A stretch of DNA of 64,000 nt from Vampirovibrionales bacterium (GTDB lineage Bacteria > Cyanobacteriota > Vampirovibrionia > Vampirovibrionales > JAJTHC01). Location of the stretch: positions 5,895-69,894 of the forward strand of contig JAYKHY010000064.1 of the NCBI GenBank assembly GCA_035285025.1, read 5' to 3'. The position numbers and the translations under genes were made by a program. The notes beneath the pieces are model-generated. The model saw nothing but the letters and a program-made list of their open reading frames with translations, was not told the DNA's origin and searched no databases. The stretch's first letter is position 1. Each line of letters starts with the position of its first letter. Shown piece by piece: positions 5,363 to 48,373 of the stretch.

Positions 5363-5680
5363 AAGCTGTAGGTCTTTGCGATAGCGCGCTGCTTTCGCTA
5401 GAAATCTTCCTCAAAAAATTTTCTTTGAGCGCAAAGACCTGCTGATTTTGATGACAACAAGAAAACCTGCGTGTTATGTCTAGAAATCTTCTTCTAAAGA
5501 AAACACTTGTTAGGAAACGTTTTGGAGCGACAAGCTGTAGGTCTTTGCGGTTGCGCGCTGCTCTCGCTAAAAATCTTCCTCAAAAAAATTTTCTTTGAGC
5601 GCAAAGACCTGCTGATTTTGATGCCAACAAGAAAACCTGCGTGTTTTCTCTAGAAATCCTCTTCTAAAGAAAACACTTGT
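5363..5680. repeat. two tandem copies (period 169 bp, 149 bp homologous, about 94% identical) that duplicate the nrdB 3' end and its 3' flank
   Basis: Unit 5363-5511 aligns with unit 5532-5680. Each unit ends with ctagaaatcYtcttctaaagaaaacacttgt, which is the reverse complement of QVFSLEEDF-stop. Each unit also has an internal inverted repeat AGGTCTTTGCG/CGCAAAGACCT. Confidence 0.9.
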
Positions 5681-6936
5681 TTTTCTTTACCCGTCATTAC
5701 GCCGGCTTTTTGGTAGGCACCCACGCGGCACTCGAAAAAATTGGATTTGTTTTGCAGCGAAATGTGTTCCATGAACGGGAACGGATTTTGCGCAAAGTAA
5801 ATCTTCGGGTAGCCCAATTCTGCCACCAGGCGGTCGGCGACAAATTCGACGTATTGGCACATTAGTTTTGCGTTCATGCCAATTAATTCCACCGGAATCG
5901 CCTCGGTAACAAAATGTTTTTCGATATCGACCGCGCTGGTCACAATCTCGCGGATGCGGGCTTCATCGAGCTTTTTAGTGAGCATGCTGTAAAGCAGGCA
6001 GGCAAAATCGCAGTGCAGGCCTTCGTCTCGGCTAATCAGTTCGTTGGAGAAGGTTAAGCCGGGCATTTTGCCGCGTTTTTTAAGCCAGAAAATAGAACAG
6101 AAGCTGCTCGAGAAAAATACGCCCTCTACCAGTGCAAACGCCACCAGGCGCTCGGCGAACGAGTCCGTATCGTTAATCCAGCGCATCGCCCATTCCGCTT
6201 TTTGTTGCACGCAAGGCATGGTGTCTATGGCGTGGAACAGGCGGTGCTTTTCGTACGGGTCCTGAATGTAGGTATCAATCAAGAGGCTGTACATTTCGGA
6301 GTGAATGTTTTCAATCGCAATCTGGAAGCCGTAAAAACAACGTGCCTCGGGGATTTGCACCTCGGTGCTGAATCGGCTGGCCAGGTTCTCGTTTACAATG
6401 CCATCGCTGGCCGCAAAAAACGCCAGAATGTGCGAGATAAAATAACGCTCGTTATCGTTAAGCCCGCGCCAATGCTCTAAATCACTGCTCAGGTCAACTT
6501 CTTCGGCCGTCCAGAAGGAGGCGACGGCTTTTTTGTACATTTCCCAGATGGCGTTGTGCTTAATCGGGAACAGTACAAAGCGTTCCTGAGACGGGGCCAG
6601 CAGGGGCTCGTTCAAAATGCGCGATTTTTGCAGGGCAGCTTCAGCCGTTTCCGATACAAGCGACAATCCTGGTGCGGTTAAAGCACCTGGCGTCAAACTG
6701 GTAAGCGCATCGGCTGCGTGCATGGGCTCGGCATCCTTTCTGGACAACGTATCGAATGATTTTAAAAGCGAGGCGTTTAACTGAGGCAGATCTTCGAGCT
6801 GAAACGGCGGCAGTTCATCAACATCTGCGGCGCTGGCTGTCAGTCCCTCTCGAGTTACAATTGCACTAGGATCCGTCATGGTCAAATTATAGTCCTTAAA
6901 CTGTTCAACGTTTGCGTTATTTGCGTTAAACAACAC
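5650..6936 (-). CDS. nrdB: ribonucleotide reductase class Ia small subunit (R2, eukaryote/chlamydia-like), with an N-terminal extension of about 110 aa
   Basis: [97 protein letters not shown] and a C-terminal FSLEEDF tail. The true start may be an internal Met. Confidence 0.9.
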
Positions 6937-13846: not shown

Positions 13847-14226
13847 TAAACTGACCCAAGAGCTTTTTTTAGCCCAAACGGACTCAAAAGCCTAAATATG
13901 CTATGATTTTAGCAACTTGAGCCGTGCCAATTAAACCTGTTGCCCTAGGCCGTGGCCGAGCGGTTAAATATTTATGCCGGGTAAATATGTAAGCGCTGTA
14001 ACGCAATTAAGTTGTTAAAAAAGCCCCCGGTACGTTTGACGGGCTAAAATTGTAAGCGTTTACGTAAAATGCTTAAAAAATTCGCACAAAAAGTGCTTGA
14101 GCGGGTTTGACGCCATTACAGACTGATTTAATCTCGACTAAAAAAATATATTGCTAAAAAAAATGGGTTAGAACGCCCTGGGGGCAGCGCCTGACTTCAA
14201 TCAACGGGGAGCCGGTTTAATCACGC

Positions 14227-15141
14227 ATGAGTACGCCAAGTCCGACTGCTACGAGATATTTCGCGCCGGGTGTTTTACCTGCTGGACTTTCGCAAGCGCC
14301 GCCCGTGTTGCCGCCGCATTTGATGGCACCGCACTTTTACGCGCAATACGGTGCTTTAAAACAGCCCGCAACGCCTGTAATCGCCAATGCGCTGCCGGTG
14401 CCGGGTTTGGGGCCTGTGGCTGGGCCCTCGCCTGCGGCTGCGGCGATGCCGATGGAAGCCCTGGTGCGCGATTCGGTTGAGTTGGCGGGTAAAAAACTGG
14501 TTCAGCAAGCCGAACATCTGAACCCTACACAGATGCAATCTGCTATTAATAAGGCTGTAATGAGCACGGGTAAGGTTGCGGCGGGCCTAACTAAAGTGGG
14601 GATTCAGGCGATTCCTGAGTTTCATAATCCGCTCGAAAAAGGCTGGCTGCGCCTGGTGGGGTTTTTTAATGAATTTGCAGAATCCGCCAAGGGCGTGATT
14701 CCACCGCAGTTGTATCGTCTGTTTTATGGCGTCGAGATGGCGTATACCGCGCTGGATTGCCTGAATACGCGTAAGCACGCCCTGACGCATCAGGATAATT
14801 TGTTGGAGGCGCAGCAAAAGCGCAAAGTTGCCGTGGGCGAAATGCTTAACACGCTGGGCAAGCAAGGCCTGGCTACGTTTTTGATTCCTTATGTTGTGAT
14901 TGAGAACTTTAAAAAAGTCGTTGAGCACGCCCTGGAAAATCCAAAACTGATGCAAAAGTTACCGGCAAAACTTGCTCAAGCTGTTACCAGTAAGGCGGGT
15001 AAAAAATTCATTCCGGTGCTGGCGGGCTTGTCCACGATTCCGTTGTTAACCCGCTACGTCGATCCGTTGGTGTTTGGCGGCTGCGATAAATTCTTGCGGC
15101 CGCTCGTCGGTGCCGCGCCTTTAGAGCAAGAGCCTCGCTAA
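14227..15141 (+). CDS. hypothetical protein with a proline-rich N-terminus
   Basis: 304-aa ORF. I recognise no motif. Its 3' end is part of the tandem repeat at 15109-15303. Confidence 0.55.
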   Translation: MSTPSPTATRYFAPGVLPAGLSQAPPVLPPHLMAPHFYAQYGALKQPATPVIANALPVPGLGPVAGPSPAAAAMPMEALVRDSVELAGKKLVQQAEHLNPTQMQSAINKAVMSTGKVAAGLTKVGIQAIPEFHNPLEKGWLRLVGFFNEFAESAKGVIPPQLYRLFYGVEMAYTALDCLNTRKHALTHQDNLLEAQQKRKVAVGEMLNTLGKQGLATFLIPYVVIENFKKVVEHALENPKLMQKLPAKLAQAVTSKAGKKFIPVLAGLSTIPLLTRYVDPLVFGGCDKFLRPLVGAAPLEQEPR

Positions 15142-15303
15142 GCCAGATTTGACATCGCAAGGGTTAATGCGCGGGTTCACCGACGCGTGTTACAACGCCG
15201 GGTGCCGCGCCTTTAGAGCAAGACCCTAGTTAAGCCAGATTTGACATCGCAAGGGTTAATGCGCGGGTTCACCGACGCGTGTTACAACGCCGGGTGCCGC
15301 GCC
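15109..15303. repeat. 92-bp tandem repeat (2 full units plus an 11-bp third start) covering the stop region of ORF 14227..15141
   Basis: Units start at 15109, 15201 and 15293, each with GGTGCCGCGCC. Units 1 and 2 differ at 3 of 92 positions, all within the last three sense codons. Confidence 0.9.
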
Positions 15304-15442
15304 GCTGGAAGCACAACGCTAATAGGTGTTTACTGGCTTTTTAAAAGTAGTGTTTATAATTAGCGGCGTTTTAATTTTTATTAGGGGTTGTATGAGAGAC
15401 GCCTCAGGTTTCTGCAGCAAGCAGCGCTGAGTATTCCACAGG

Positions 15443-18400
15443 CTAAACCTCGAGCCAGCTGGGGCCCACGCTGACATCTACAATCAGCGGCACGCGCAGC
15501 GGCTTCTGAGCATCGTCGAGCTTCATCGCCCAAAGCACCTGCTTGGTTACGTCGTCAAGGGCGGCTTGCGGGGCCTCTAGCACCAATTCATCGTGTACCT
15601 GTAGCAGCAGTCGGGCCGGACTTTGCGTCTCGTGTAATTTTTCGTGCAGGCGGTTCATGGCCAGCTTGATTAAATCGGCCGCAGAACCTTGCAGGGGCGT
15701 GTTAAACGCGGCGCGCTCGGCAAACTCCCGAATGTGCCGCACGGGGCTCTCTAGCGCCTCTTTAAGCCAGCGACGGCGGCCATATAGCGTTTCAACGTAG
15801 CCCTGGCCGTGCGCCAGTGCCTTGGTTTCTTCAATAAAATCGCGCACGCGCGGGTAACGTTCAAAATATTTATCAATAAACGCCTGCGCCTCGAATCTTG
15901 GCACGCCCAGTTGCTGCGATAATCCGTGCGCGGTTTGACCGTAAATCACGCCAAAGTTTACGGTTTTAGCCTGGTAGCGCATGGTTTTGGTCACGTCTGC
16001 CAGCGGTACATCAAACACCAGGCTGGCGGTGCTGACGTGTACATCCTGCCCGTTTTGGAACGCCTCAATCAGGTGCGGATCTTCCGAAAAATGCGCCAGC
16101 AGGCGCAGCTCGATTTGGGAGTAATCGGCCGAGATTAAAAAATAGGGCTGATTAGCGTCTAAAAGTCCATCCTGATGTGGGGTGCGTTCCCTCCCTCGCA
16201 CTCCCTTTCCGGAGGGAATAAACGCGTGCCGGATTTTTTGCCCCACCTCGGTTTTAACCGGAATATTCTGCAGGTTGGGCTCGCTGCTAGAGAGCCTGCC
16301 CGTGGCGGCAATCGTCTGGTTCAAGCTGGTATGCACCCGGCCCGATTTGGGATGCACCAGCTGCGGCAACGCATCAATGTACGTGCTTTTAAGCTTGAAT
16401 AGCTGCCGGTATTCCAGCAGTTTACCTACCATCGGGTATTCTGGGGCCAGTTGCTCTAGTACTTGGGCGTCGGTGCTAAAGCCGGTTTTGCCCGCGGTTT
16501 TTTTGGTGGGTTTAATGCCCATGCGCTCAAATAAAATCTCGCCCACTTGTTTGGGCGAATTTAAATTAAACGGCAGGCCGGCCAGCGCGTGGACTTCGGC
16601 TTCTAGCTGGGTGAGCTGCTCGCCCAGTTGCTGCGAGAGTTCGGCCAGATAGCTCGTGTCAATCGTGATGCCAAGGCGTTCAATGGCCGATAACACCTCG
16701 ACCAAAGGCAATTCAAGCTCGTAGAGCAAAGCATTCAGGCCCGCGTTGGCTTGCTGGGCAAGCTCTGTTGCAAAACTTTCGGCCAGCGCAAGCGTCACGT
16801 AAACATCGCTTGCGGCATACGGAGCGCCTTGCGCAATAGGCACTTGGCTAAACAGAATCTGTTTTTTCCCGCTGCCAATCAGCGTGGTAATATCCTGCAG
16901 AATCAGTCCCAGCAGGTCGCTGCCCAGGGCTTTAAGGCCGTGGCGGCGCTCGGGATTCAGCACGTAACTGGCTAGCATGGTATCGAACCACAGGCCCTGG
17001 CATAGGTCTGGATTGATATTTTTTGGGCTTGGATTTTCTGGATTTATCGCTTCGGCCTGTTGCAGTCCCCATTCGTTGAGTACGCTGCGCTCGTATTTGG
17101 CGTTGTGCGCTATTTTAATAATGTACGGGTCTGCCAGCAGCGGTGCCAGTTTCTGGAGTACGGTTTTCGGCGTGAGTTGCGGCGTTTTTCCTGATGTTTC
17201 GTCATTGGTTTCGTCTGCCACATGCCCGACCGGCACATAAACGATTTCGAGGCGATCAGTCTCAGGTGTTGGGCTATCAGGTGTTGCGCTAAGCTCGGTT
17301 GCCTGTGGGTTTACATGCAGGGCAACGGGCTGGCAAGGCAAACACGCTAGCTGCAACGGATTTTTAGGCGTGTAGCCTGTTTTAGATAACGCCTTGCTCC
17401 AGCCAAGCGCGTAGCCCACGGGCTGAATCGTAAGCGGGTCCAGGCCGGTGGTTTCCAAGTCTATTGCCAGCACGCCTTGCGCTTTGGCGCGGGCTAAAAA
17501 CGCGTCAAGGTCGGGCTCGGTTGTAACAAGTTTAAACGGCGGGCTAAAGGGCGCTGTAGGCGCAGATGAAAAAGCCAAAAGCTGGTGCTGAAGCGTTGCC
17601 TCTGCACTGGCACTATTCTGTGCTTGTGTGCCGCTTGCAAGTAGCTCGGGCGAATTCGGGTTTGATGCGCTTTGCGCCGGCGCGTCTGCCGCCGTTGCAT
17701 TGGCGGCGTTCGGCGTCTGGGGCGAAATAGATTCTTGCGTAAACGGTTTAAGTAACTGCGGCGATTGCTGTAAAAACGTTCTGAACTCGCATTTCTTCAG
17801 AAAATCCACCCAGTGCTGCCACACCGGAATATGCAATTCAAGGGCCTCTAGCGTCGTGGTTGCCTCGGGTACATCGCACTTAATTTGCGCAAGCGTTTGG
17901 CTCAGGTAAGCTTGCGCTTTGTGGGTGATTAATTTTTCGCGCAGTTTGTCGGGTTTAATCTGGTCGATGGCGTTGTAAATGGCATCGAGCGTGGGGTACT
18001 CGGTGAGTAATTTGCACGCGGTTTTTTCGCCAATGCCTGGTACGCCCGGAATATTATCAGAGGTATCGCCGCGTAAGGCCTTGTAATCTACGACCTGCTC
18101 GGGTTTAACGCCCAGTTTCTCGAACACGGCAGCTTCGCCGTAGCGCTTGAGGCCTTCTCGCGGCGTGCGCGAGGGAATCAATACCTGAATCTGCCCGGCG
18201 TGAGTTGTGTTGTCGACATCGTGCACCAACTGGAAGGCGTCTTGATCGCCGGTAAGAATTAGTACTTCGGCCTGGTGCTGTTGCGCAAGCTGTTTGGCCA
18301 GCGTGCCGATGACATCGTCAGCCTCGACGCCGGACACCTGAAACAGCGGCATGCCCAAGGCGTTTACGCCCTCCAGAATCATGGCCATTTGCACTTTCAT

Positions 18401-18736
18401 GGCGTCTGGCATGGCTTCGCGGTGCGCTTTATACGCCTCGTAGAGATCGGTTCGAAACGATTCCCGCGAGACGTCAAACGCGACCGCAACGCCCGTAGGG
18501 GCAACCTCTTTGAGCATGGCAAACAGGGCGTTAAAAAAGCCGTACACTGCCCAGGTTGGTTCTTGCCGGCTGGTTTTCATGCCGGTGCGCTCGAGCGCAA
18601 AGTACATTCTGTAGGCCAACGCGTGGCCATCAATTAATACGATTTTAGGCGTACCCGTTTTGCTCGATTCAAGTATTTGCGATTGAGGTAATTGCGCCGG
18701 CGGGGTCAATAACTCGCGCTGCGTTTCGGTGTTCAT
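15443..18736 (-). CDS. polA: DNA polymerase I (1097 aa, with low-complexity linkers)
   Basis: 5'-nuclease motif GDTSDNIPGVPGIGEKTA, motif A ADYSQIELR, motif B RYQAKTVNFGVIYG and motif C LQVHDELV. Confidence 0.97.
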   Translation of the reverse strand: MNTETQRELLTPPAQLPQSQILESSKTGTPKIVLIDGHALAYRMYFALERTGMKTSRQEPTWAVYGFFNALFAMLKEVAPTGVAVAFDVSRESFRTDLYEAYKAHREAMPDAMKVQMAMILEGVNALGMPLFQVSGVEADDVIGTLAKQLAQQHQAEVLILTGDQDAFQLVHDVDNTTHAGQIQVLIPSRTPREGLKRYGEAAVFEKLGVKPEQVVDYKALRGDTSDNIPGVPGIGEKTACKLLTEYPTLDAIYNAIDQIKPDKLREKLITHKAQAYLSQTLAQIKCDVPEATTTLEALELHIPVWQHWVDFLKKCEFRTFLQQSPQLLKPFTQESISPQTPNAANATAADAPAQSASNPNSPELLASGTQAQNSASAEATLQHQLLAFSSAPTAPFSPPFKLVTTEPDLDAFLARAKAQGVLAIDLETTGLDPLTIQPVGYALGWSKALSKTGYTPKNPLQLACLPCQPVALHVNPQATELSATPDSPTPETDRLEIVYVPVGHVADETNDETSGKTPQLTPKTVLQKLAPLLADPYIIKIAHNAKYERSVLNEWGLQQAEAINPENPSPKNINPDLCQGLWFDTMLASYVLNPERRHGLKALGSDLLGLILQDITTLIGSGKKQILFSQVPIAQGAPYAASDVYVTLALAESFATELAQQANAGLNALLYELELPLVEVLSAIERLGITIDTSYLAELSQQLGEQLTQLEAEVHALAGLPFNLNSPKQVGEILFERMGIKPTKKTAGKTGFSTDAQVLEQLAPEYPMVGKLLEYRQLFKLKSTYIDALPQLVHPKSGRVHTSLNQTIAATGRLSSSEPNLQNIPVKTEVGQKIRHAFIPSGKGVRGRERTPHQDGLLDANQPYFLISADYSQIELRLLAHFSEDPHLIEAFQNGQDVHVSTASLVFDVPLADVTKTMRYQAKTVNFGVIYGQTAHGLSQQLGVPRFEAQAFIDKYFERYPRVRDFIEETKALAHGQGYVETLYGRRRWLKEALESPVRHIREFAERAAFNTPLQGSAADLIKLAMNRLHEKLHETQSPARLLLQVHDELVLEAPQAALDDVTKQVLWAMKLDDAQKPLRVPLIVDVSVGPSWLEV
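16177..16214 (+). repeat. copy of the 37-38 nt GC-rich palindromic repeat, inside polA and in frame
   Basis: gtggggtgcgttccctccctcgcactccctttccggag. It is read on the polA strand as SGKGVRGRERTPH. Confidence 0.7.
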
Positions 18737-37972: not shown

Positions 37973-38071
37973 AACATCAAGCTACTCGGGTAAAAACGCT
38001 GGCGCTATTCATTTAAAAGCTGGCGCTATTTAGGTAATACCATCATCGCTACTCGGGTAAAAACGCGGGCG
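37973..38071. repeat. duplicated queD 3' end (period 67 bp) plus an internal 2 x 12-bp repeat
   Basis: gctactcgggtaaaaacgc occurs at 37981-37999 and 38048-38066. GCTGGCGCTATT occurs at 37998-38009 and 38019-38030. Confidence 0.8.
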
Positions 38072-38495
38072 CGCCAGCGGCCTGCGTAATTTCTGCGCTA
38101 TTGTTGCGGGATTCTTGCAGGCGAACGCGGCTTAGCGAGATGCCGGAGGGCAAATGAGGCTCAAGCTGTTGCCAAAACGCCTGCGCCAATACCTCGGTGG
38201 TGGGGATTTTTCCGGTTAAAAATGGTACGTCCATGTTCAGGTGCTTATGATCGACCCAGTTTAAAATCCAGGTCTCTACGAGTTCATCCAGCGCACCAAT
38301 GTCCATCAACATGCCCGTGTCTGGGTGTGGTGTGCCTGTAATACTTACCCACAGGGCGTAATTATGGCCATGGCCGTTAATATGGCTGCACGGGCCAAAC
38401 ACGTTTTTATTGGCCTCGTCACTCCATTGCGGGTTATACAGGCGGTGGCTGGCCGGAAAATCATAGCGGCGCGTTAATAGTAATTGAGGCATCAT
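38049..38495 (-). CDS. queD: 6-carboxy-5,6,7,8-tetrahydropterin synthase
   Basis: FPASHRLYNP..........FGPCSHINGHGHNYALWVSITG and WVDHKHLN. Confidence 0.9.
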   Translation of the reverse strand: MMPQLLLTRRYDFPASHRLYNPQWSDEANKNVFGPCSHINGHGHNYALWVSITGTPHPDTGMLMDIGALDELVETWILNWVDHKHLNMDVPFLTGKIPTTEVLAQAFWQQLEPHLPSGISLSRVRLQESRNNSAEITQAAGAPAFLPE

Positions 38496-46572: not shown

Positions 46573-48243
46573 ATGATTCAGCTAGAAGCCGTTGCGAAAA
46601 CCTTTGGTAGCCACACTTTATTTGAAGATATTACGTTCCAGGCCAATCCCAGTAGCCGCATTGGTTTAGTTGGTAAAAACGGCGCCGGAAAATCAACTTT
46701 GTTCAAGTTGATTATGGGCGAGCTGGAGCCGGATGCGGGCAAAATCCACCGCGATCCGGGCACGATGATTCAGTGCCTGACGCAGGAGCCAAAAATCACG
46801 CACGGCAATACGCTCTGGGAAGAAGTCCAATCCGCGTTCCCGTCGTTGCAAGCCTTGCAAGATGAAGAAGATGCCCTGCTTGCCCAGTGGGATACCTTTG
46901 ACACCGATGCGCAAATGGCAGCCTGCGACCGGTTGGCGGCGATTAACCAGTCTCGCGAAAACTTGGGGCACCTGGATGCCGATGCCAGCCGGATGCTAAC
47001 TGGACTGGGATTTGCGCTCGATGAGTTTGATCGCAAGGTGGAACATTTTAGCGGTGGCTGGCAAATGCGGATAAACCTGGCCAAAGTATTGCTGCAAGGT
47101 GCGCATTTTATTTTGATGGACGAACCGACGAACCATTTGGATCTTGAAGCGCGCGAGTGGTTGGAAGGATTTTTAAAGTCGTATCCGGGCGGGTTGTTTG
47201 TGGTCTCTCACGATCGCTCGTTTCTGGATCAGGTGGTGACCGAAATCGCCGAAATTGAACTGGGGCGTTTAACTATTTGGCCCGGTAATTACACGCAAGC
47301 CAAACAGCTCAAGGCCGAGGCGCACGAGCGTTTGCAGGCTGCGGCGGATCGCCAACAAAAAGATATGGCTAAACAAATGGCCTTTGTGGAGCGCTTTAGA
47401 GCCAGCGCGACCAAAAGCACGCAGGCCAAAAGTCGCGAGAAGCAGCTGGCTAAAATCGAGCGCATTGAAGCCCCTAAAACCGACAACCAGAAAATGAGCA
47501 TTCGGTTTCCGGCGCCGCCTGCCAGCGCGCGACAAATGCTGATGTTTAAATCGGTGGGTAAACGGTTTTATGATAACGTGTTGTTTACCGGTATGACGGC
47601 CGACATTGAACGCGGCCACAAGGTGTTTTTGCTTGGTGCGAACGGCTGCGGTAAAACCACGCTGCTCAGAACCATTTTAGGGCTGGAGTCGATGAGCGAA
47701 GGCGATATTGAGCAAGGCCAGAACGTAAAACTGGGCTATTTTTCGCAGCATCAGCTCGAAACGCTGGACCCTAAGCTGAACGTATTTGAAACTCTGGAGC
47801 GTGAAGCTGACGGGCGAATGGACAACACCGAAATCCGTGGCGTGCTGGGGCGGTTTTTATTCTCGGGCGAGCGGGTTTACAAGCCGGTTTCGGTTTTAAG
47901 CGGCGGCGAAAAATCTCGGCTTGCGCTGGCAAAATTGATTTTAGGCGATGCCAACCTGCTTTTGCTGGATGAGCCGACCAACCACATGGATATTCAGGCG
48001 CAGAGTGCGATTGAGCAGGCCTTTAAGCAGTACGAAGGCGCGCTGTTGTGCATCTCGCACGATCGTTATTTTATTCAGCAGGTGGCCACGCATATCTGGG
48101 AGTTTTATAAGGGTCATTTGCTCAAGTACGATGGCGGCTACGACCATTACCTAAGCAAGCGCGATTCACGTCGGGCGGAGCTGGATGCTCGTTTGGAAAA
48201 GCAGGCGCGCAAACTGGCTGCTGCTTCTGCCAAGCAAAAGTAG
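46573..48243 (+). CDS. ABC-F family ATPase (two ABC domains, no TM domain)
   Basis: GKNGAGKST, LSGGWQMR, GANGCGKTT and LSGGEKSR, plus a charged C-terminal tail. Confidence 0.9.
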   Translation: MIQLEAVAKTFGSHTLFEDITFQANPSSRIGLVGKNGAGKSTLFKLIMGELEPDAGKIHRDPGTMIQCLTQEPKITHGNTLWEEVQSAFPSLQALQDEEDALLAQWDTFDTDAQMAACDRLAAINQSRENLGHLDADASRMLTGLGFALDEFDRKVEHFSGGWQMRINLAKVLLQGAHFILMDEPTNHLDLEAREWLEGFLKSYPGGLFVVSHDRSFLDQVVTEIAEIELGRLTIWPGNYTQAKQLKAEAHERLQAAADRQQKDMAKQMAFVERFRASATKSTQAKSREKQLAKIERIEAPKTDNQKMSIRFPAPPASARQMLMFKSVGKRFYDNVLFTGMTADIERGHKVFLLGANGCGKTTLLRTILGLESMSEGDIEQGQNVKLGYFSQHQLETLDPKLNVFETLEREADGRMDNTEIRGVLGRFLFSGERVYKPVSVLSGGEKSRLALAKLILGDANLLLLDEPTNHMDIQAQSAIEQAFKQYEGALLCISHDRYFIQQVATHIWEFYKGHLLKYDGGYDHYLSKRDSRRAELDARLEKQARKLAAASAKQK

Positions 48244-48373
48244 CGTTGCTATTTTGAGATGGGCGTTCTAATTACATAAGCTTTGCTATGCGAGGGCCGT
48301 TCCCTCCCTCGCGCTTCCTCCCTGAGCTTGGGCCGAGCAAAAGTAGCGTTGCTATTTTCAGATAGCGCGTTCT
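48229..48373. repeat. about 41-bp direct repeats duplicating the ABC-F stop region and flanking a palindromic-repeat copy
   Basis: gccaagcaaaagtagcgttgctattttgagatgggcgttct (48229-48269) is repeated as gccgagcaaaagtagcgttgctattttcagatagcgcgttct (48332-48373). Confidence 0.8.
48290..48326 (+). repeat. copy of the 37-38 nt GC-rich palindromic repeat (intergenic)
   Basis: The sequence is gcgagggccgttccctccctcgcgcttcctccctgag. Confidence 0.85.

Follow-up and report, generated by a model that had tools for sequence, protein, structure and literature searches.

Integrating elements regenerate the 3' end of the gene that they target, as do phage e14 or 21 in icd and the islands found in tRNA and tmRNA genes. 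Slippage that is independent of RecA occurs in E. coli, and the long-period intergenic repeats of bacteria include the mycobacterial MIRUs and the tandem repeats of Ehrlichia ruminantium. VNTR-105 and VNTR-141, two loci of Wolbachia, are likewise intergenic VNTRs with long periods (PMC3287509). Dan et al. 2021 (PMC8639346) describe tandem duplication mediated by microhomology as replication slippage, a frequent and reversible event.

The array described here lies in a Vampirovibrionales genome of 2.16 Mb and is a genuine tandem duplication peculiar to its locus, a minisatellite of two units as assembled. Coordinates refer to the window, the whole stretch of 64,000 nucleotides that was analysed. 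The host gene (14227..15141, plus strand, from the open-reading-frame list) encodes a hypothetical protein of 304 amino acids, in which Pfam recognizes an MTP18 domain (PF10558, E=2.5e-7) and which ends in ...RPLVGAAPLEQEPR, followed by the stop codon TAA. A search for other alleles or strains among database proteins and in the contigs of metagenomes and genomes returned one ortholog only, with 55% identity, which ends in ...RPFVGAAPLVSGD and a stop and keeps the G-A-A-P-L of the host-protein terminus. More distant homologues are conserved only up to ...RP(L/F)(V/T)G.

The convergent neighbour is polA (15443..18736, minus strand), which encodes DNA polymerase I, as judged from the open-reading-frame list and from the Pfam domains of an identical product on an independently assembled contig. 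The A/T-rich spacer that reaches from the end of the array to the polA stop (15326..15442) holds no consensus terminator or promoter among those looked for, and no compositional break was found at the locus. Rfam returned no known RNA family at the array; a sub-threshold match to suhB was seen upstream of it, at 14149-14192.

The edges of the duplication are formed by an 11-bp direct repeat, GGTGCCGCGCC, which codes for G-A-A-P and is present at just three places in the window (15109..15119, 15201-15211 and 15293-15303, plus strand), where about 0.13 copies are expected by chance; three copies were reached in none of 100 shuffles. The genome holds four further copies, all within ordinary G-A-A-P coding contexts. 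Tandem Repeats Finder reports 15109-15303 as 2.1 copies of a 92-bp period with 97% matches. With X denoting the 81 nt between successive 11-mers, the layout is 11-mer-X-11-mer-X-11-mer (A-X-A-X-A).

Unit 1 (15109..15200, plus strand), as delimited by Tandem Repeats Finder and a repeat search, starts ten codons ahead of the host-gene stop and comprises the 11-mer, tail 1 (LEQEPR, stop at 15139-15141) and 59 nt of non-coding sequence. Unit 2 (15201..15292, plus strand) comprises the 11-mer, tail 2 (LEQDPS, stop at 15231-15233) and the identical 59 nt, and is out of frame with the host gene because 92 is not divisible by 3. The two units are identical at 89 of 92 positions (GAGCCTCGC versus GACCCTAGT at the tail end), and the three positions that differ (15224, 15228 and 15230) are clustered inside 7 nt and all alter amino acids. 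A quasi-palindrome template switch was rejected as the source of this cluster, since no quasi-palindrome or inverted repeat that could support it was found there. The third 11-mer opens the last element of the array (15293..15325, plus strand), which reads GAAPLEAQR followed by TAA TAG and is probably an older displaced gene end. The three copies are thus read as GAAPLEQEPR, GAAPLEQDPS and GAAPLEAQR, the last one closed by two stops, and tail 3 spells P-L-E as CCG CTG GAA where tails 1 and 2 use CCT TTA GAG. In all these respects, namely the three positions and the 92-bp period, the three in-frame tails with their stops, the restriction of unit differences to the tail end and the codon change in tail 3, the sequence-only reading described the array correctly.

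An imperfect inverted repeat accompanies the array. Its 5' arm (15105..15121, plus strand; CGTC, the 11-mer and TT) straddles the left edge of the unit, while its 3' arm (AATGCGCGGGTTCACCGACG) lies inside X on the same strand at 15166..15185 and again at 15258-15277, and is predicted to pair with the 11-mer upstream of it or with the one downstream. The 3' arm is complementary to the junction of gene, 11-mer and tail 1, including 4 nt of unique gene sequence. The inverted-repeat test gave p=0.02 at the array, and the predicted stem has a fold z-score of only -0.9.

The structure was compared with an independent assembly, the Logan contigs (k=31) of run SRR13425446. Contig L074 carries the whole host gene and tail 1 and ends at window position 15168, exactly 30 nt past the last base specific to unit 1. 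Contig L072 runs from polA over the spacer, through tail 3 and the 11-mer, and 19 nt into X, and thereby includes the junction of X, 11-mer and tail 3; it ends exactly 30 nt (k-1) before the branch into a further unit or tail 3. Contig ends that lie k-1 from both branch points are the trace that a genuine tandem repeat, with its unit in two variants, leaves in an assembly graph. An assembly that breaks where a real repeat would break, and that contains the X-11-mer-tail 3 junction, indicates that the structure is not an artefact of the assembler of the metagenome-assembled genome. That genome consists of 68 contigs, and assemblers are prone to settle on a wrong unit number in repeats, which would favour an assembly error or a mosaic of co-existing strains over the structure of one genome. 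However, both the succession of gene, 11-mer, variant 1 of tail 1 and X and that of X, 11-mer, tail 3 and polA are present at k=31, a single-unit locus would have assembled straight through because the 11-bp repeat is shorter than k, and the periods at sister loci (40-170 bp) match no k-mer size. There is also no break at 15119, so that an abundant allele free of the unit does not exist. An artefact or mosaic is therefore hardly credible. At the sister arrays this reading of contig ends is obstructed by dispersed repeats or by identity over more than k nt.

The host-gene array is one of 13 gene ends with tail echoes among the 1688 genes of the genome. An echo at the DNA level was defined as a repetition of the last six codons and the stop, with 17 or more of the 21 nt matching, no farther than 400 nt downstream, and permuted tails give about 0.2 such genes. 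At the peptide level 11 genes carry echoes, compared with 0.1 for permuted tails and 2 upstream of starts. Examples are nrdB, fabI, queD and an ABC-F gene. The units of the stop-spanning arrays are unrelated between loci, with common stretches of at most 8-12 nt. The recurrence of the same architecture at about a dozen gene ends with unrelated sequences speaks for a duplication process that is independent of sequence. An echo at C3:8995, considered as a second deeply diverged case, was rejected as a by-product of an 11-nt microrepeat.

Several of the sister loci end in a partial copy of 24-54 nt, which is too long for chance microhomology, so that simple slippage fails to account for the first step there. 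The flank past the last tail is unrelated to X at the sister loci even though the tails are nearly identical. A degenerate but full last copy was rejected, as X and the flank downstream, compared in register, show no more than background identity at any locus.

Eight of nine arrays have their best inverted repeat across the left edge of the unit, four arrays reached p<0.03 against shuffles, and stop-enclosing stems are seen again at the sister loci. The tendency of left edges to lie in the 5' arm of a stop-enclosing stem suggests that hairpin-associated replication errors may start the echoes. The hairpins themselves are energetically unexceptional across loci (z -0.2 to -1.3).

The differences between echoes and functional tails amount to 22 silent and 16 non-silent changes (58% silent versus about 42% expected). 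A first tally, small and partly hand-picked, gave 11 silent to 0 non-silent changes in last copies and 1 to 6 in middle copies. A recount by copy of DNA-ascertained echoes over two genomes gave ratios of 15:12 for last and 7:4 for middle copies, which do not differ, and the proposal that selection keeps displaced tails coding was withdrawn after this unbiased count. Neutral decay suffices to explain the echo differences.

MutS2 is absent only from this genome and its closest relative among 21 relatives. Echo loci number 13 and 4 in the two genomes without MutS2 (G000 and G001), as opposed to 1 in one MutS2-positive relative. One may propose that the array reflects a mode of mutation peculiar to its lineage, in which stop-enclosing hairpins trigger gene-tail duplications in a MutS2-less Vampirovibrionales clade of two genera, and that displaced tails are occasionally re-used as gene ends; we regard this proposal as unlikely. 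Were it true, MutS2 would normally suppress structure-associated duplication of the tail-echo class.

The best explanation of the host-gene array, and a fairly probable one, is a duplication between the 11-bp repeats, through slipped strands or microhomology, which was tolerated and involved no mobile element. The units are bounded by the same short repeat with an extra copy at the far end, the duplicated sequence is local and has no other copy in the genome, and the tandem junction is found in data beyond one assembly (L072 and L074). The latest step would have been replication slippage or unequal sister-strand exchange between 11-bp repeats 92 bp apart, turning A-X-A into A-X-A-X-A. Slippage, which had been judged less likely from the sequence alone, is the simplest mechanism for the step that separates units 1 and 2, and that judgement is not borne out. 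The duplication would be harmless: the first copy retains a complete frame and stop and thus keeps the gene intact, and the extra DNA sits in the spacer between convergent genes, which would explain why it was tolerated. Tail 2 would then be an untranslated spare in which decay has begun, its three differences all being non-synonymous. Tail 3 would probably be an older displaced end; otherwise the second 11-mer would be a chance microhomology with a coincidental P-L-E. Stems around the stop codon may initiate such duplications.

On this explanation a site-specific recombinase or mobile element is not involved in the array. The sequence-only reading had likened the pattern to the regeneration of a target gene end at an att site, where an element bearing its own gene end would have integrated at the 11-bp core twice, or been duplicated later, and then been mostly deleted to leave attL, 81 nt and attR. 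The three exact 11-bp blocks at the junctions do have sharp edges, similarity is absent upstream of them, and the downstream resemblance is at the protein level only, as expected of attL and attR around a regenerated gene end. The contig of the array (C64), however, carries no tyrosine or serine recombinase gene; the PF00589 matches in the genome are four genes on contigs C18, C32, C21 and C3, and the PF00239 match is one gene on contig C66. There is no element body between the 11-mers, whose 81 nt hold no open reading frame beyond a spurious frame of 40 amino acids. The genome contains only two copies of the unit, and its longest other match is 14 nt. The proposed search for other copies of the 81-nt part likewise returned none from the genome-contig, metagenome-contig, phage and plasmid collections, although these databases are sparse and the absence is weak evidence; nor did they hold the same element or att sequence elsewhere, or empty as opposed to occupied sites. 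In DNA, the similarity between tails 1 and 3 past the core is not significant, and a dozen gene ends with unrelated sequences would each need a site-specific system of their own. Integration at an att site is thus highly improbable. A dispersed repeat or MITE was rejected, as the unit is unique, lacks terminal inverted repeats and bears no relation to the genome's two families of dispersed hairpins, and non-homologous end joining was rejected as a source of the duplication because Ku is missing here and in nearly every relative. A functional array would switch the C-terminal tail by recombination between 11-mers, or would couple tail translation to mRNA 3'-end formation through alternative RNA hairpins, formed by the direct-inverted-direct order of 11-mer, complementary arm and 11-mer. 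The predicted pairing of the X arm with either 11-mer and the recurrence of stop-enclosing stems are in its favour, but the fold energies are no better than those of shuffles, no terminator-like T-run follows, no Rfam family is matched, the tails differ in just a few poorly conserved residues and the changes in tail 2 are all non-synonymous, as in unselected DNA, which leaves a functional role very remote. DNA of a diverged strain might instead have been recombined in, through a homology anchor on one side and an illegitimate join on the other, placing a foreign end (11-mer, tail 1 and hairpin flank) before the resident tail 3, with slippage following later. Tails 1 and 3 do differ as functional alleles would, by synonymous changes and in-frame indels only, with preferred codons in tail 3 and rarer ones in tail 1, and the complementarity of the X arm to the gene/11-mer/tail 1 junction, including the unique gene sequence, gives the gene end, tail 1 and X the look of a single co-adapted block. 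Against this, no donor or alternative allele was found in the collections searched, the locus shows no compositional break, the genome-wide silent excess is largely gone on the unbiased count, and the end flanks at sister loci are unrelated to X despite near-identical tails, unlike those of close alleles. Import from a diverged strain is accordingly quite improbable.

The slippage explanation leaves the origin of tail 3 to be weighed. Tail 3 is probably what remains of a former gene end that an older event of this kind displaced. Measured against real intergenic sequence, its peptide resemblance to tail 1, with the nearby stop included, is expected by chance with a probability of about 6e-4, the ortholog shares G-A-A-P-L, tail 3 is written in the preferred codons of the genome and tail 1 in rarer ones, and the terminal partial copy at sister loci always spans the whole tail and the stop. 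Alternatively, the flank may have held a second GGTGCCGCGCC by chance, with a single microhomology-mediated duplication and a coincidental P-L-E-A-Q-R-stop. Roughly three genes per genome of this size are expected to have an exact chance pair of 11-mers, by arithmetic from genome size and gene number for copies in the last codons and at most 200 nt downstream; the similarity in DNA past the 11-mer is not significant (p ~0.06), the locus was picked post hoc for this very pattern, and distant homologues lose conservation before the tail. A coincidental tail 3 is, on balance, rather unlikely. Compared with tail 1, tail 3 shows four synonymous changes, two in-frame indels and no non-synonymous change, a pattern that is somewhat improbable (roughly 0.003) for an old echo under neutral decay. 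A mildly unusual residue therefore remains either way, whether tail 3 is an echo (0.003) or not (6e-4). Of the displacement of the gene end that the sequence-only reading had proposed, the displaced tail copies behind the functional end are found and tail 3 is plausibly older, with some probability left to a chance tail 3 (DNA p ~0.06).

The locus alone, where a neutral duplication follows a hypothetical gene, is of little weight. It shows that gene ends can come to be repeated in an att-like pattern with no mobile element at work. The dozen or so stop-spanning duplications, which include those at the essential genes nrdB and fabI, form a natural record of the sites where duplication is tolerated, namely the 3' ends of convergent genes, and may also record the initiators, stop-enclosing stems. 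That MutS2 has been lost in precisely the two genomes rich in echoes provides a testable hypothesis on a poorly understood protein. For annotation, echoes yield spurious alternative C-termini and contig breaks.

The array resembles the 3'-end regeneration known from icd and tRNA genes in its identity block at the junctions and in a replacement tail that precedes the displaced one, similar to it in protein and different in codons. It differs from such systems in having no integrase, no cargo and no second occurrence of the unit, and in an architecture that recurs at unrelated gene ends. A near-identical repeat of the gene 3' end directly downstream is also reminiscent of the TR/VR pair of diversity-generating retroelements. 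However, the genome has no match to a reverse transcriptase (PF00078), and unit 1 departs from unit 2 by C>G, A>C and T>C, with only one of the three at a template adenine.

With microhomology and slippage duplications the array shares a segment bounded by short repeats and doubled head-to-tail (repeat-X-repeat-X-repeat), which needs no dedicated enzyme and is tolerated where the frame survives. The published cases are defined by reversibility and subclonal variation, whereas the present array is known from assembled sequence; its repeat is long (11 bp), its unit spans a stop codon and its downstream repeat may be a relic of an older duplication. The echo loci are also similar to bacterial VNTRs and minisatellites, as tandem units of 40-170 bp occur in or near spacers, in low copy and at several loci of a small genome. 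While MIRUs form one dispersed sequence family, each echo locus has its own unrelated unit, and, unlike in VNTRs and MIRUs, this unit regularly begins inside the last codons of a gene, each copy carrying a spare tail with its stop.

The repeat lies at the 3' end of an ORF of 304 amino acids (14227–15141, forward strand), which faces the end of the convergent polA gene (15443, reverse strand). Three copies of GGTGCCGCGCC start at 15109, 15201 and 15293, and no other is present in the 64 kb, where about 0.13 would be expected and no shuffled sequence reached three. Tandem Repeats Finder reports a period of 92 bp with 2.1 copies and 97% matches over 15109–15303. Read in the frame of the gene, the 11-mers open tail 1 (GAAPLEQEPR-stop), tail 2 (GAAPLEQDPS-stop) and tail 3 (GAAPLEAQR-stop-stop), and the 11-mer positions, the period and the three tails with their stops described in the sequence-only reading match the window exactly. 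The 92-bp period is not divisible by 3, so read-through of the first stop would reach neither tail 2 nor tail 3. The full units 1 and 2 are distinguished by three bases (GAGCCTCGC vs GACCCTAGT) at 15132, 15136 and 15138, all within 7 nt and all changing the amino acid (E to D, R to S), and the other 83 nt are identical. A quasi-palindrome accounting for this clustering was looked for at the locus and none was found.

The host gene encodes a bacterial protein for which Pfam gives a weak, yet above-threshold, match to MTP18, a family named after a mitochondrial fission protein. A search of 5.8 billion proteins yielded a single close relative, which belongs to one related genus of the Vampirovibrionales and is 55% identical. 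Its C-terminus ends in RPFVGAAPLVSGD before the stop, and therefore G-A-A-P-L is conserved between two genera. Weak homologs, 27–29% identical, are present in a small number of genomes within the order, and in distant homologs conservation extends only up to RP(L/F)(V/T)G. Just upstream of the gene, at 14149–14192 on the reverse strand, the Rfam family suhB/mmgR matches below its threshold (25.8 bits, gathering score 41, E=0.012), probably by chance.

Since the genome of this uncultured Vampirovibrionales bacterium is a multi-contig MAG (68 contigs, 93% complete), an artefact had to be weighed. For run SRR13425446, exact-protein look-up located an independent assembly from Logan (k=31). Its contig with the whole gene and tail 1 stops at 15168, exactly 30 nt past the last base distinguishing unit 1 from unit 2. 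The second, polA-side contig contains polA, the spacer, tail 3, the 11-mer and 19 nt of X (the 81 nt between 11-mers), and stops exactly 30 nt before the fork into TTTAG (a further unit) or GCTGG (tail 3). With a repeat of 11 bp, which is below k, a single-unit locus would assemble straight through. Breaks k-1 from both branch points show that the shared part of X is entered by two variants and left by two continuations. Thus, both the tandem junction and the X–11-mer–tail 3 junction exist in the reads of this run. As the contig with the gene is unbroken at 15119, an abundant unit-free allele is absent from that sample.

The sequence-only reading had proposed an att-site-type regeneration of the gene end and had considered slippage less likely. 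The 92-bp unit has no further copy in the genome, where the longest other match is 14 nt, and no match in genome, metagenome, phage and plasmid collections. The four other copies of the 11-mer in the genome are all in ordinary G-A-A-P coding contexts. The recombinase genes (four tyrosine, one serine) are all on contigs other than that of the locus, and the 81 nt between the 11-mers contain no gene, so that of the hallmarks of an integrated element only the identity block is clearly present. A diversity-generating retroelement (DGR) is excluded, as no reverse transcriptase is encoded in the genome and the differences between the units show no specificity for adenines. A further argument against the att-type mechanism comes from unrelated sister loci, gene ends whose last codons and stop are likewise repeated downstream as a “tail echo”. 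Of the nine long-period tandem repeats with a period not divisible by 3, seven begin 4–15 codons before a gene stop and run downstream. A DNA-level scan for the last six codons and stop of every gene (at least 17 of 21 nt repeated downstream) gave 13 loci among 1688 crude genes, as compared with 0.2 for permuted tails. At the level of peptides, 11 loci were counted, whereas permuted tails gave 0.1 and only two head echoes lay upstream of starts. The echo units at about 12 other genes are tandem or near-tandem and 40–170 bp long. They include the ends of nrdB (window 5363–5681), queD (37981–38072) and an ABC-F gene (48233–48363), as well as fabI and a FlpD-like gene, and echoes on other contigs are found at C3:37483–37877, C29:14204–14447, C59:28409–28582, C6:11047–11328, C12:8129–8221, C43:15311–15488, C59:33187–33295, C60:4114–4229 and C58:23888–23954; one C3 array has 6.8 copies of 58 bp. 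Units of different loci are not related to one another, each being unique to its own, and the loci mostly sit in convergent spacers. This distribution is explained by duplication that does not depend on sequence and is filtered by tolerance, and not by a site-specific system.

The closest relative, G001, has 4 echo loci among 616 genes (0.75 Mb sampled), and the more distant complete relative G004 has one among 1047 (1.2 Mb), a 310-bp duplication. This array, at 1195801–1196421 of G004 sequence L012-L071, a perfect 310 bp x 2.0, covers the stops of two convergent genes and is the sole such array in 1.2 Mb. The mutS end at C3:8995–9010 (PQLSLF-stop/PVLSLF-stop) was rejected as a diverged echo; it is mimicry, the stop lying within an 11-nt microrepeat, xGTTTTARGCC, that is present three times. 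A dispersed GC-rich hairpin element of about 35 nt, GCGAGGGCCGTTCCCTCCCTCGC, with dozens of copies, is found between 28–54-nt direct repeats at window 48261–48335, where it falls between two ABC-F tail copies, and at C1:23058–23211; long duplications of the target may be linked to insertion of this element.

In a first tally (a small sample, partly picked by eye), the silent to non-silent changes were 11:0 in last copies and 1:6 in middle copies. This contrast disappeared in a purely DNA-ascertained, boundary-trimmed recount over this genome and G001 (15:12 in last and 7:4 in earlier copies, Fisher p=0.73), and the idea that displaced tails are kept coding by selection was withdrawn. The overall silent share of 58% is a marginal excess over the ~42% expected when the functional copy takes only silent changes and the echo takes all. 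For the sister loci, it is enough to assume duplication and subsequent neutral decay.

Tail 3 probably represents a true older gene end. In real intergenic DNA of the genome, 6e-4 of positions carry a peptide that resembles LEQEPR at least as well and has a stop equally near. Two in-frame indels and four synonymous changes separate tail 3 from tail 1, its codons CCG, CTG and GAA are the preferred ones whereas tail 1 has the rarer CCT, TTA and GAG, and its P-L is kept in the close ortholog. Chance resemblance is favored by the DNA similarity beyond the 11-mer, which is not significant (p=0.06), by the selection of the finding for this very pattern, and by an estimate based on the size and gene count of the genome, according to which about 3 genes in a genome as large as this would have a suitably placed 11-mer pair by chance. 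Whether or not tail 3 is a relic, the exact identity of the 11-mer is expected once later slippage is taken to have used it. The proposed successive displacement of the gene end is partly supported, but its att-type mechanism is not.

In 8 of 9 arrays, the left edge of the unit is spanned by the best inverted repeat or palindrome, whose loop contains the stop codon, and complementarity between tail and X passes a shuffle test in four arrays, including that of the locus (p=0.02). There, 15105–15121 (CGTC, the 11-mer and TT) is predicted to pair with 15166–15185, an arm which may alternatively pair with the next 11-mer. In energy, the predicted folds of the arrays do not stand out from those of shuffled sequences (z -0.2 to -1.3), and searches at the locus for a terminator consensus and an Rfam family found neither. 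The inverted repeats suggest that hairpin-associated replication errors might start these duplications.

Slippage between 11-mers would expand the units. At the sister loci, the terminal partial copy is 24–54 nt, too long for chance microhomology, and the similarity ends abruptly after it, and therefore simple slippage covers the expansion and not the first step, which gave 11-mer–X–11-mer. Ku is absent from the genome. MutS2 (MutS_V and Smr domains) is present in 19 of 19 other relatives searched and missing exactly in this genome and G001, the two echo-rich ones; as both are incomplete MAGs (93% and 79%) of one clade, this counts as one observation, and the correlation is only a lead. Contrary to the sequence-only reading, slippage-type duplication fits the expansion of the units, and the same architecture recurs at unrelated gene ends. 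The locus is thus probably a new case of a known kind of event, tandem duplication of the slippage type, here across a stop codon, and its genome has unusually many duplications of this sort.
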